Shown: piece after piece, positions 3,001 to 6,000 of the stretch
How positions within the stretch are numbered: the stretch's first letter is position 1
Layout: each line of letters begins with the position of its first letter
Made by a program: the position numbers
From: Escherichia coli
Lineage (GTDB): Bacteria; Pseudomonadota; Gammaproteobacteria; Enterobacterales; Enterobacteriaceae
Direction: 5' to 3' (one strand)
Length of the DNA: 64,000 nt
NCBI RefSeq assembly: GCF_048403405.1
Contig: NZ_CP183129.1

Positions 3001-6000
3001 GATGTTGCGGATATCTTCCCTTATGCTTCGTCGCTGTGGGTCGGTGACGGGGCAACGTTCAAGACTGGCGCGGATCAGGATATTCAGTCAATTGATGTTA
3101 CTTCCAGCGGCACTATCGACATCAGCGATGGTACGGTTTTGCGCCTGACCGGGCAGGATACTTCCGTCGCCCTTAATGCCTCACTGTTTAACGGCGATGG
3201 GACGCTGGTGAATGCTACTGATGGCGTGACGTTGACAGGCGAGCTTAATACCAACCTTGAAACTGACAGCCTGACCTATCTTGCCGACGTGACGGTTAAT
3301 GGTGATCTGACCAATACGTCCGGTGCGGTTAGCCTGCAAAATGGCGTCGCTGGCGATACGCTGACGGTAAACGGTGATTATACCGGCGGCGGTACGCTAC
3401 TGCTCGATAGCGAATTAAACGGCGATGACTCGGCAAGTGACCAACTGGTGTTGAACGGTAATACTGCTGGCAACACGACCGTGGTAATTAATCCCATTAC
3501 GGGTATTGGTGAGCCGACATCTACAGGTATTAAAGTGGTTGATTTCGCAGCCGAACCCACGCAGTTTCAAAACAATGCGCAGTTCAGTCTGGCGGGCAGC
3601 GGCTACGTCAATATGGGCGCGTATGACTACACGCTGGTGGAAGATAACAACGACTGGTATCTGCGATCGCAAGAAGTAACGCCACCATCGCCACCTGATC
3701 CAGACCCGACTCCCGATCCTGATCCCACGCCGGATCCTGATCCAACACCCGACCCGGAACCTACGCCTGCCTACCAGCCGGTGTTGAATGCCAAAGTTGG
3801 TGGATATTTTAATAACCTGCGGGCGGCAAATCAGGCGTTTGTGATGGAGCGACACGATCACGCTGGTGGCGATGGTCAGACGCTGAATTTACGTATTATC
3901 GGCGGAGATTATCATTACACAGCAGCGGGGCAACTGGCTCAGCATGAAGATACTTCTACGGTGCAGCTTAGCGGCGACTTGTTTAGCGGACGCTGGGGCG
4001 CGGATGGCGAGTGGATGCTTGGGGCGGTTGGTGGCTACAGTGATAACCAGGGCGACAGCCGCTCGAATATGACCGGAACTCGCGCCGATAACCAGAACCA
4101 CGGTTATGCCGTTGGTCTGACCTCAAGCTGGTTTCAGCACGGTAATCAGAAGCAGGGGGCCTGGCTGGATAGCTGGCTGCAATACGCGTGGTTTAACAAT
4201 GATGTTTCCGAACATGAAGATGGCGTGGATCATTACCACTCATCGGGGATTATCGCCTCGCTGGAAGCCGGGTATCAGTGGTTACCGGGGCATGGAGTGG
4301 TGATTGAACCACAGGCGCAGGTGATTTATCAGGGCGTGCAGCAGGATGATTTTACCGCCGCTAACCATGCGCGCGTGTCACAATCGCAGGGTGATGATAT
4401 TCAAACGCGGCTGGGTTTACACAGCGAATGGCGTACCGCTGTTCATGTCATACCATCATTAGATCTGAATTATTATCACGATCCCCATGCGACGGAAATT
4501 GAAGAAGATGGCAGCACTATCAGTGACGATGCGGTGAAGCAACGGGGTGAAATAAAAGTGGGAGTCACGGGCAATATCAGTCAGCGAGTTTCGCTGCGCG
4601 GCAGCGTGGCGTGGCAGAAAGGGAGTGATGATTTTGCCCAGACGGCAGGGTTTTTGTCGATGACGGTGAAATGGTAGCTGCTTTGCGCCCGGCATTGTAG
4701 CCGGATGTGGTGCGAGCACCTTATCCGGCTAACAATTTTATTTATTCTGCGTGTGCAGCATATAGTTCACATCGACGCCGGGGCCGAGCTTAAAGGAATT
4801 AGTGATCGGGTTGTAATGCAGCCCGGTTATATGTCGCTCTTTTAAACTGGTCTGATCCACCCAGCCCAGCAGTTCTGCCGGTTTTATAAATTTCTTCACG
4901 TCGTGCGTGCCTTTGGGCACCATGCGCAAAATATATTCCGCGCCAACCACCGCCATCAGCCATGACTTGCCGTTGCGGTTAAGCGTCGAGAAAAAGACAT
5001 CGCCGCCCGGTTTCACCAGTTGCGCACAGGCTCTGACCACTGACTGCGGATCGGGGACGTGCTCCAGCATCTCCATGCAGGTCACCACGTCATACTGCCC
5101 GGCATGTTTTGCCGCGTGCTCTTCCACGGTTTCCTGCACGTACTCTACCTGAATGCCACTTTCCAGCGCGTGCAACTTTGCCACCTGCAATGGCTCAAAG
5201 CCCATATCCAGACCGGTCACCGTCGCGCCTTCGCGCGCCATACTCTCGGCCAGAATGCCGCCGCCACAACCGACATCGAGCACCTTTTTGCCAAATAAAC
5301 CGCCAGCACGCTCGGCAATATAGCCCAGACGCAGCGGGTTAATGCGGTGCAGCGGTTTGAACTCACCTTCAAGATCCCACCAGCGGGAGGCGACAGCTTC
5401 AAATTTAGCGATCTCTTCGTGGTCTACGTTATGGTTTACCGGCGATTTTTCGGCATTCATTGGCACTTCTACTCCGTAATTGGCAAGACAAACGAGTATA
5501 TCAGGCATTGGATGTGAATAAAGCGTATAGGTTTACCTCAAACTGCGCGGCTGTGTTATAATTTGCGACCTTTGAATCCGGGATACAGTAGAGGGATAGC
5601 GGTTAGATGAGCGACCTTGCGAGAGAAATTACACCGGTCAACATTGAGGAAGAGCTGAAGAGCTCCTATCTGGATTATGCGATGTCGGTCATTGTTGGCC
5701 GTGCGCTGCCGGATGTCCGAGATGGCCTGAAGCCGGTACACCGTCGCGTACTTTACGCCATGAACGTACTAGGCAATGACTGGAACAAAGCCTATAAAAA
5801 ATCTGCCCGTGTCGTTGGTGACGTAATCGGTAAATACCATCCCCATGGTGACTTGGCGGTTTATAACACGATCGTCCGTATGGCGCAGCCATTCTCGCTG
5901 CGTTACATGCTGGTAGACGGTCAGGGTAACTTCGGTTCCATCGACGGCGACTCTGCGGCGGCAATGCGTTATACGGAAATCCGTCTGGCGAAAATTGCCC

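Follow-up and report, generated by a model that had tools for sequence, protein, structure and literature searches.

Confirmed S83L and D87N substitutions in GyrA of an Escherichia coli isolate and the probable stepwise origin of the allele within an ST38-related lineage

The stretch of DNA analysed here (64,000 nucleotides; referred to as the window) carries an intact gyrA gene with the substitutions S83L and D87N. The genotype is real and already known, and it had been read correctly in an earlier note on this DNA. Very probably, the gene represents a chromosomal target-site allele for fluoroquinolone resistance which originated stepwise within its own lineage, was passed on clonally to the source strain and is accompanied there by the ParC substitution S80I.

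Identity of gyrA and its amino acid substitutions

The ATG from which the codons had previously been counted opens a single open reading frame of 875 codons (Table 1). Its product matches the NCBIfam equivalog model for gyrA (TIGR01063) over the full length with a score of 1305.9 bits as compared with a cut-off of 877, while the models for the ParC subunit of topoisomerase IV score below their own cut-offs. The coordinates of the gene are identical with those of the RefSeq coding sequences in the collinear genomes of strains WP5-S18-ESBL-07 and MS 69-1, the alignment with K-12 gyrA (b2231) proceeds base for base across 2,628 nt, and residue 1 of E. coli GyrA chains in the PDB (6rks and others) pairs with residue 1 of the window protein. 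A wrong start codon, and hence wrong numbering, is ruled out since the annotation of K-12 and of the collinear RefSeq genomes concurs with the numbering in the PDB.

Table 1. Coordinates of features in the window
Feature	Position	Strand	Description and basis
gyrA CDS	5607..8234	+	DNA gyrase subunit A, 875 aa, intact; ORF list, NCBIfam, RefSeq
QRDR, codons 67-106	5805..5924	+	Codon table versus K-12
gyrA codon 83	5853..5855	+	TTG (Leu), wild type TCG (Ser), C>T at 5854; versus K-12, GN02461, PDB
gyrA codon 87	5865..5867	+	AAC (Asn), wild type GAC (Asp), G>A at 5865; versus K-12, GN02461, S83L-only intermediates
gyrA codon 122	5970..5972	+	TAT, catalytic Tyr122, intact; residue read, alignment with PDB 6rks
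gyrA codon 678	7638..7640	+	GAA (Glu), K-12 GAC (Asp), C-terminal domain; codon table versus K-12
yfaS-like gene	10715-15230	+	Alpha-2-macroglobulin gene, 1,504 aa, split into ORFs 10610-11464 and 11358-15230
ompC CDS	32165-33259	+	Porin; premature stop at codon 222 (32828-32830)
radD	60570-62329	-	Split into ORFs of 402 and 193 aa
Rfam matches (in the order of the names given in the text)	31738-31831; 28001-28077; 39838-39920; 56678-56751; 60467-60492	-; +; -; -; -	

Codons 83 and 87 specify Leu and Asn, respectively, and the 19-residue peptide of the quinolone resistance-determining region (QRDR) is the one that the earlier note had described, in agreement with the open reading frame and the references. 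Its description of susceptible references as Ser83 (TCG) and Asp87 (GAC) is borne out by the codons of K-12 and of strain GN02461 and by the wild-type proteins in the PDB, and the alignment to a susceptible gyrA that it had proposed yields TCG and GAC in K-12 versus TTG and AAC in the window. Wild-type GyrA (K-12 b2231; PDB 6rks, 1ab4) likewise consists of 875 amino acids and shares Tyr122; over residues 1-531, the wild-type protein of 6rks differs from the window protein at S83 and D87 only. Within the QRDR, amino acid changes relative to K-12 are confined to positions 83 and 87, with codons 85, 91, and 100 differing synonymously. Residues A51, A67, G81, D82, A84, Q106, A119, and A196 are those of the wild type.

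Compared with gyrA of K-12 MG1655, the gene in the window shows 51 nucleotide differences, of which 48 are synonymous. The three non-synonymous changes result in S83L, D87N, and D678E. Judged by sequence comparison, D678E is a lineage polymorphism and not a resistance change because it is also present in the gyrA allele of GN02461, whose QRDR is wild type and which differs from that of the window only at positions 5854 and 5865. We also agree with the previous conclusion that the source is not K-12: the synonymous divergence of gyrA (2%) alone suffices to establish this, and the window is nearly identical to the corresponding DNA of human clinical and commensal isolates.

Derivation of the allele

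Among 5,425 complete E. coli genomes, only 140 possess a gyrA gene that matches the one in the window with 99% identity or more; most others are in the range of 95-99%. The very same allele (100% identity) is shared by no fewer than 30 complete genomes; humans, dogs, cats, chickens, river water, and wastewater are among the sources. In order to search for the corresponding wild-type allele, positions 5854 and 5865 were reverted in silico and the complete genomes were searched anew. The reverted allele with Ser83 and Asp87 is present with 100% identity in at least 53 complete genomes. One of them is labelled ST38, and it is from this single record that we refer to the lineage as putatively ST38-related. 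Moreover, strains 266917_2 and 15.TR.026_OXA, one mismatch away, represent S83L-only intermediates (Leu83/Asp87) of this allele background. As one and the same background thus occurs with neither, with one, and with both of the substitutions, the stepwise series is complete.

Relatives of the whole window were found through matches of the segments flanking gyrA. The closest complete genome is that of blood isolate GN02461, which has a wild-type gyrA and deviates at 7 of the 64,000 positions including C5854T and G5865A. Only five of these differences are substitutions; one is private to GN02461 and two are located on codons 83 and 87 of gyrA. That two of five substitutions in 64 kb hit these two codons is not a matter of chance, as the probability of two random substitutions both falling within those 6 nt is, as a rough estimate, (6/64000)^2 or about 9e-9. 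In strain MS 69-1 (NZ_CP146675.1), a colon isolate of the Human Microbiome Project (strain HM-347), the gyrA allele is identical to that of the window. The two genomes are collinear over the 64 kb and differ in five places, i.e., two substitutions in the ompC region, two single-base indels in homopolymers, and a 10-bp deletion in atoE. By contrast to the window, where ompC, yfaS, and radD are broken, these genes are intact in MS 69-1. The same gyrA allele along with identical flanks is present in MS 69-1, TUM1226, and OX030728.

The 10 bp of atoE in question correspond to positions 19299-19308 of the window. They are missing in the complete genome of MS 69-1, whose atoE is annotated as frameshifted. 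Since atoE is intact in both the window and GN02461, the window does not derive from that MS 69-1 assembly.

Based on these comparisons, two single-base transitions, C5854T (TCG>TTG) and G5865A (GAC>AAC), very probably arose de novo and stepwise under quinolone selection in an ancestor of an ST38-related, MS 69-1-like sublineage, in which they became fixed, and the window strain inherited both of them clonally. The statement in the earlier note that the strain is very likely quinolone-selected is upheld as far as selection is concerned; selection, however, most likely acted on an ancestor. As the allele and its flanks are common to MS 69-1, TUM1226, and OX030728, the strain itself need not have met a quinolone.

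Alternatively, the lineage might have acquired the resistant allele from another resistant strain through homologous recombination. Such a scenario would be in line with the mosaic character of the window elsewhere, where yfaL and the nap/ccm/yejO region differ from most ST38-like genomes while positions 8235-33000 are identical to them. Yet, gyrA agrees with the wild-type allele of its own lineage at all of the remaining 2,626 positions, and both flanks of the gene are identical to those of the wild-type relative GN02461, which makes an import very unlikely. A donor from a different lineage is ruled out by this identity of allele and flanks, given that gyrA of most other genomes is only 95-99% identical, and a donor from the same lineage would make no functional change.

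The pair of substitutions as such is widespread. The same QRDR allele is shared by many fluoroquinolone-resistant clones, including ST131-H30, ST1193, ST410, and ST648. The known S83L/D87N clones and the constructed K-12 strain LM625 share the codon changes and the QRDR peptide with the window; there is no functional difference, and only the synonymous background and D678E set the window allele apart from that of the clones. Of 5,426 complete E. coli genomes, 1,370 contain an exact match to the 31-mer that covers codons 83 and 87 and has GTT at codon 85, and a further 331 contain its counterpart with the K-12-type codon 85 (GTC). The combination of Leu83 and Asn87 is thus carried by no fewer than 1,701 genomes (31%) and exists on at least two synonymous backgrounds, all of these 31-mer counts being lower bounds for mutant alleles. 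Wild-type alleles could not be counted by a distant search with the 31-mer because they lack the exact seed of 11 nt. The presence of the pair on at least two backgrounds fits the many independent origins that have been reported (PMC5400412).

In one of the 5,426 genomes the match to gyrA is located on a plasmid, and the search with the mutant-type 31-mer of the QRDR likewise hit one plasmid location. A mutated gyrA copy residing on a plasmid could be the explanation.

It is extremely unlikely that the two changes in gyrA stem from faulty sequencing or assembly, or that they are neutral polymorphisms of the lineage unrelated to drug selection. The differences in homopolymer length by which yfaS and radD are interrupted in the window (see below) do resemble assembly errors. 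The changes in gyrA, however, are substitutions and not homopolymer indels, and we trust them despite such errors because they match the 2,628-nt allele of at least 30 other, independent complete genomes exactly. Neutrality is difficult to reconcile with two non-synonymous changes on precisely the two residues that contact the drug and with the effect on the MIC documented for isogenic constructs (PMC2714960). Both variants of this explanation are opposed by the fact that the same allele also exists with the wild-type sequence and with a single mutation, and by the recurrence of the pair on different synonymous backgrounds.

Other features of the window: ompC, frameshifts, and mosaic structure

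Two further substitutions, both private with respect to GN02461 and MS 69-1, are located in the ompC region. A G>A change at position 32829 converts Trp222 (TGG) to a stop codon (TAG), which cuts OmpC to 221 amino acids. The second one, G>T at position 32076, lies 89 nt 5' of the ATG and alters the hexamer at 32074-32079 from GAGAAT to GATAAT. This hexamer is located 17 nt downstream of a TTGGAT sequence, and the two elements look like a putative -35/-10 pair of ompC whose -10 element is now closer to the consensus. The TTGGAT/GATAAT pair was not flagged in a consensus promoter scan, and a literature search on it returned no usable source. The gene for the small RNA MicF is divergent from ompC and is not touched by the change at 32076.

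Neither W222* nor the change at 32076 is present in any of the 5,426 complete E. coli genomes. W222* was found in three public read-set assemblies, of which DRR388125 shares the background of the window but lacks the promoter change, whereas DRR386112 and SRR32369791 have a different rcsD/intergenic background; hence, this stop codon recurs on the same as well as on a different background. The G>T change at 32076 was not found in any other genome or assembly examined. Porin loss bears on susceptibility to beta-lactams and carbapenems and on phage resistance. Taken together, the four substitutions distinguishing the window from both of the closest genomes, or from GN02461 with its wild-type gyrA, affect two loci relevant to antibiotics, gyrA and ompC. 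It is tempting to speculate that the source is a porin-deficient, MS 69-1-like derivative which evolved in multiple steps under antibiotics or phage, with W222* being a recurrently selected porin-loss allele and the promoter change being adaptive. The occurrence of W222* on an unrelated background in public read sets is consistent with recurrent selection; overall, we regard this reading as tentative and rather doubtful.

Two genes are interrupted by frameshifts at homopolymers. In the yfaS-like gene, a run of seven A residues at 11450-11456 corresponds to six in all close relatives. This is probably a homopolymer error of the assembly, with a real pseudogene being possible; yfaS is a pseudogene in K-12, too. 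In radD, a run of four C residues at 61146-61149 contrasts with five in relatives. An identical truncated product of 402 amino acids is on record in many single-contig assemblies (long-read style), which suggests that the frameshift is a recurrent homopolymer miscall and not biology. The base-call quality of the source assembly is therefore imperfect, with at least two probable homopolymer errors.

Two blocks of the window diverge from most genomes with this gyrA allele, namely the yfaL block (approximately 1000-4000; about 98.3% identity) and the napB-ccm-yejO-yejM block (approximately 44000-58000; about 98.9%), although the segment 8235-33000 is identical in those same ST38-like genomes. The yfaL end is matched at 99% or more by only 8 complete genomes and the nap/ccm block essentially exactly by about 20; both blocks are matched by, among others, MS 69-1, TUM1226, OX030728, GN02461, and TUM14771. 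An in-frame length difference of 24 bp was noted in the Pro/Asp repeat of yfaL (3711-3734). The block pattern, as judged from identity levels, indicates a recombination mosaic. Above the Rfam gathering score, the window has matches to the MicF small RNA, to two elements of the naRNA4/REP type, to tRNA-Pro, and to the leader of ribosomal protein L25 that precedes rplY, as is to be expected for this part of the chromosome.

Effect of the pair on gyrase and the level of resistance

Residues 83 and 87 are located on helix 4 of GyrA. In the wild-type enzyme, Ser83 and Asp87 hold a water-magnesium bridge that places the keto-acid of the quinolone in the DNA-cleavage complex; with Leu83 and Asn87, cleaved DNA is not trapped by the drug anymore, and the enzyme remains functional. 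The role of the two residues as anchors of a water-metal ion bridge is documented in the literature (PMC9917921), from which the biochemical data and MIC values discussed here are also taken. Purified gyrase with the single GyrA substitutions S83L or D87N supports cleavage at about half the wild-type level at 500 uM ciprofloxacin, and the S83L/D87N enzyme shows essentially no ciprofloxacin-induced cleavage even at this concentration but retains its response to a metal-independent quinazolinedione (PMC9917921).

In isogenic derivatives of MG1655, the MIC of ciprofloxacin rises from 0.016 mg/L (wild type) to 0.38 mg/L (S83L) or 0.25 mg/L (D87N), amounts to 0.38 mg/L when both substitutions are combined, and reaches 32 mg/L upon addition of parC S80I (PMC2714960, Table 1). 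The triple mutant exhibits no significant fitness cost (PMC2714960). The earlier note had presented S83L plus D87N as the canonical pair behind high-level resistance. The pair is indeed canonical, but on its own it confers no more than 0.38 mg/L in isogenic K-12, and 32 mg/L requires parC S80I (PMC2714960). According to modelling and clinical data, the usual and favoured order of steps is S83L, followed by parC S80I and then D87N (PMC5400412). Given this order, and because D87N brings no gain in MIC unless topoisomerase IV is already altered, the presence of D87N predicts a parC mutation.

The genes parC, parE, marR, and acrR, as well as plasmid-borne quinolone-resistance genes, lie outside the window (parC is about 0.96 Mb away in relatives), and the strain's level of resistance is deduced from its relatives. 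In MS 69-1, parC (L010, 14192-16450) encodes S80I (AGC>ATC) and A108T. By contrast, parC of GN02461 is wild type at codons 80 and 108, and these two non-synonymous bases are the only nucleotide differences between the two parC genes.

A strain with the gyrA pair and a wild-type parC would have low-level resistance only (ciprofloxacin approximately 0.25-0.5 mg/L). The location of parC outside the window leaves room for this possibility, and the isogenic K-12 strain with S83L and D87N but without a parC change (0.38 mg/L) exemplifies the expected phenotype (PMC2714960). We nevertheless consider it unlikely because D87N on top of S83L is without benefit as long as parC is not mutated (0.38 versus 0.38 mg/L; PMC2714960), because D87N follows parC S80I according to modelling and clinical data (PMC5400412), and because MS 69-1, the nearest relative with the allele, has parC S80I. 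Most likely, the source strain thus possesses the classic triple genotype and is highly resistant to ciprofloxacin, as judged from its relatives and the reported order of steps. A double mutant without any parC change would be the only unusual possibility left.

With regard to gyrA itself nothing novel remains, and no new biology is involved since the mutations, their mechanism, the order of steps, and the epidemiology are all thoroughly documented. The value of the finding lies in annotation and in the prediction of resistance phenotypes. The allele predicts resistance to nalidixic acid and at least reduced susceptibility to ciprofloxacin, and high-level resistance should the strain, like its nearest relative, have parC S80I. 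Furthermore, the allele assigns the source to a fluoroquinolone-resistant, putatively ST38-related clinical or commensal lineage, as opposed to a laboratory strain.
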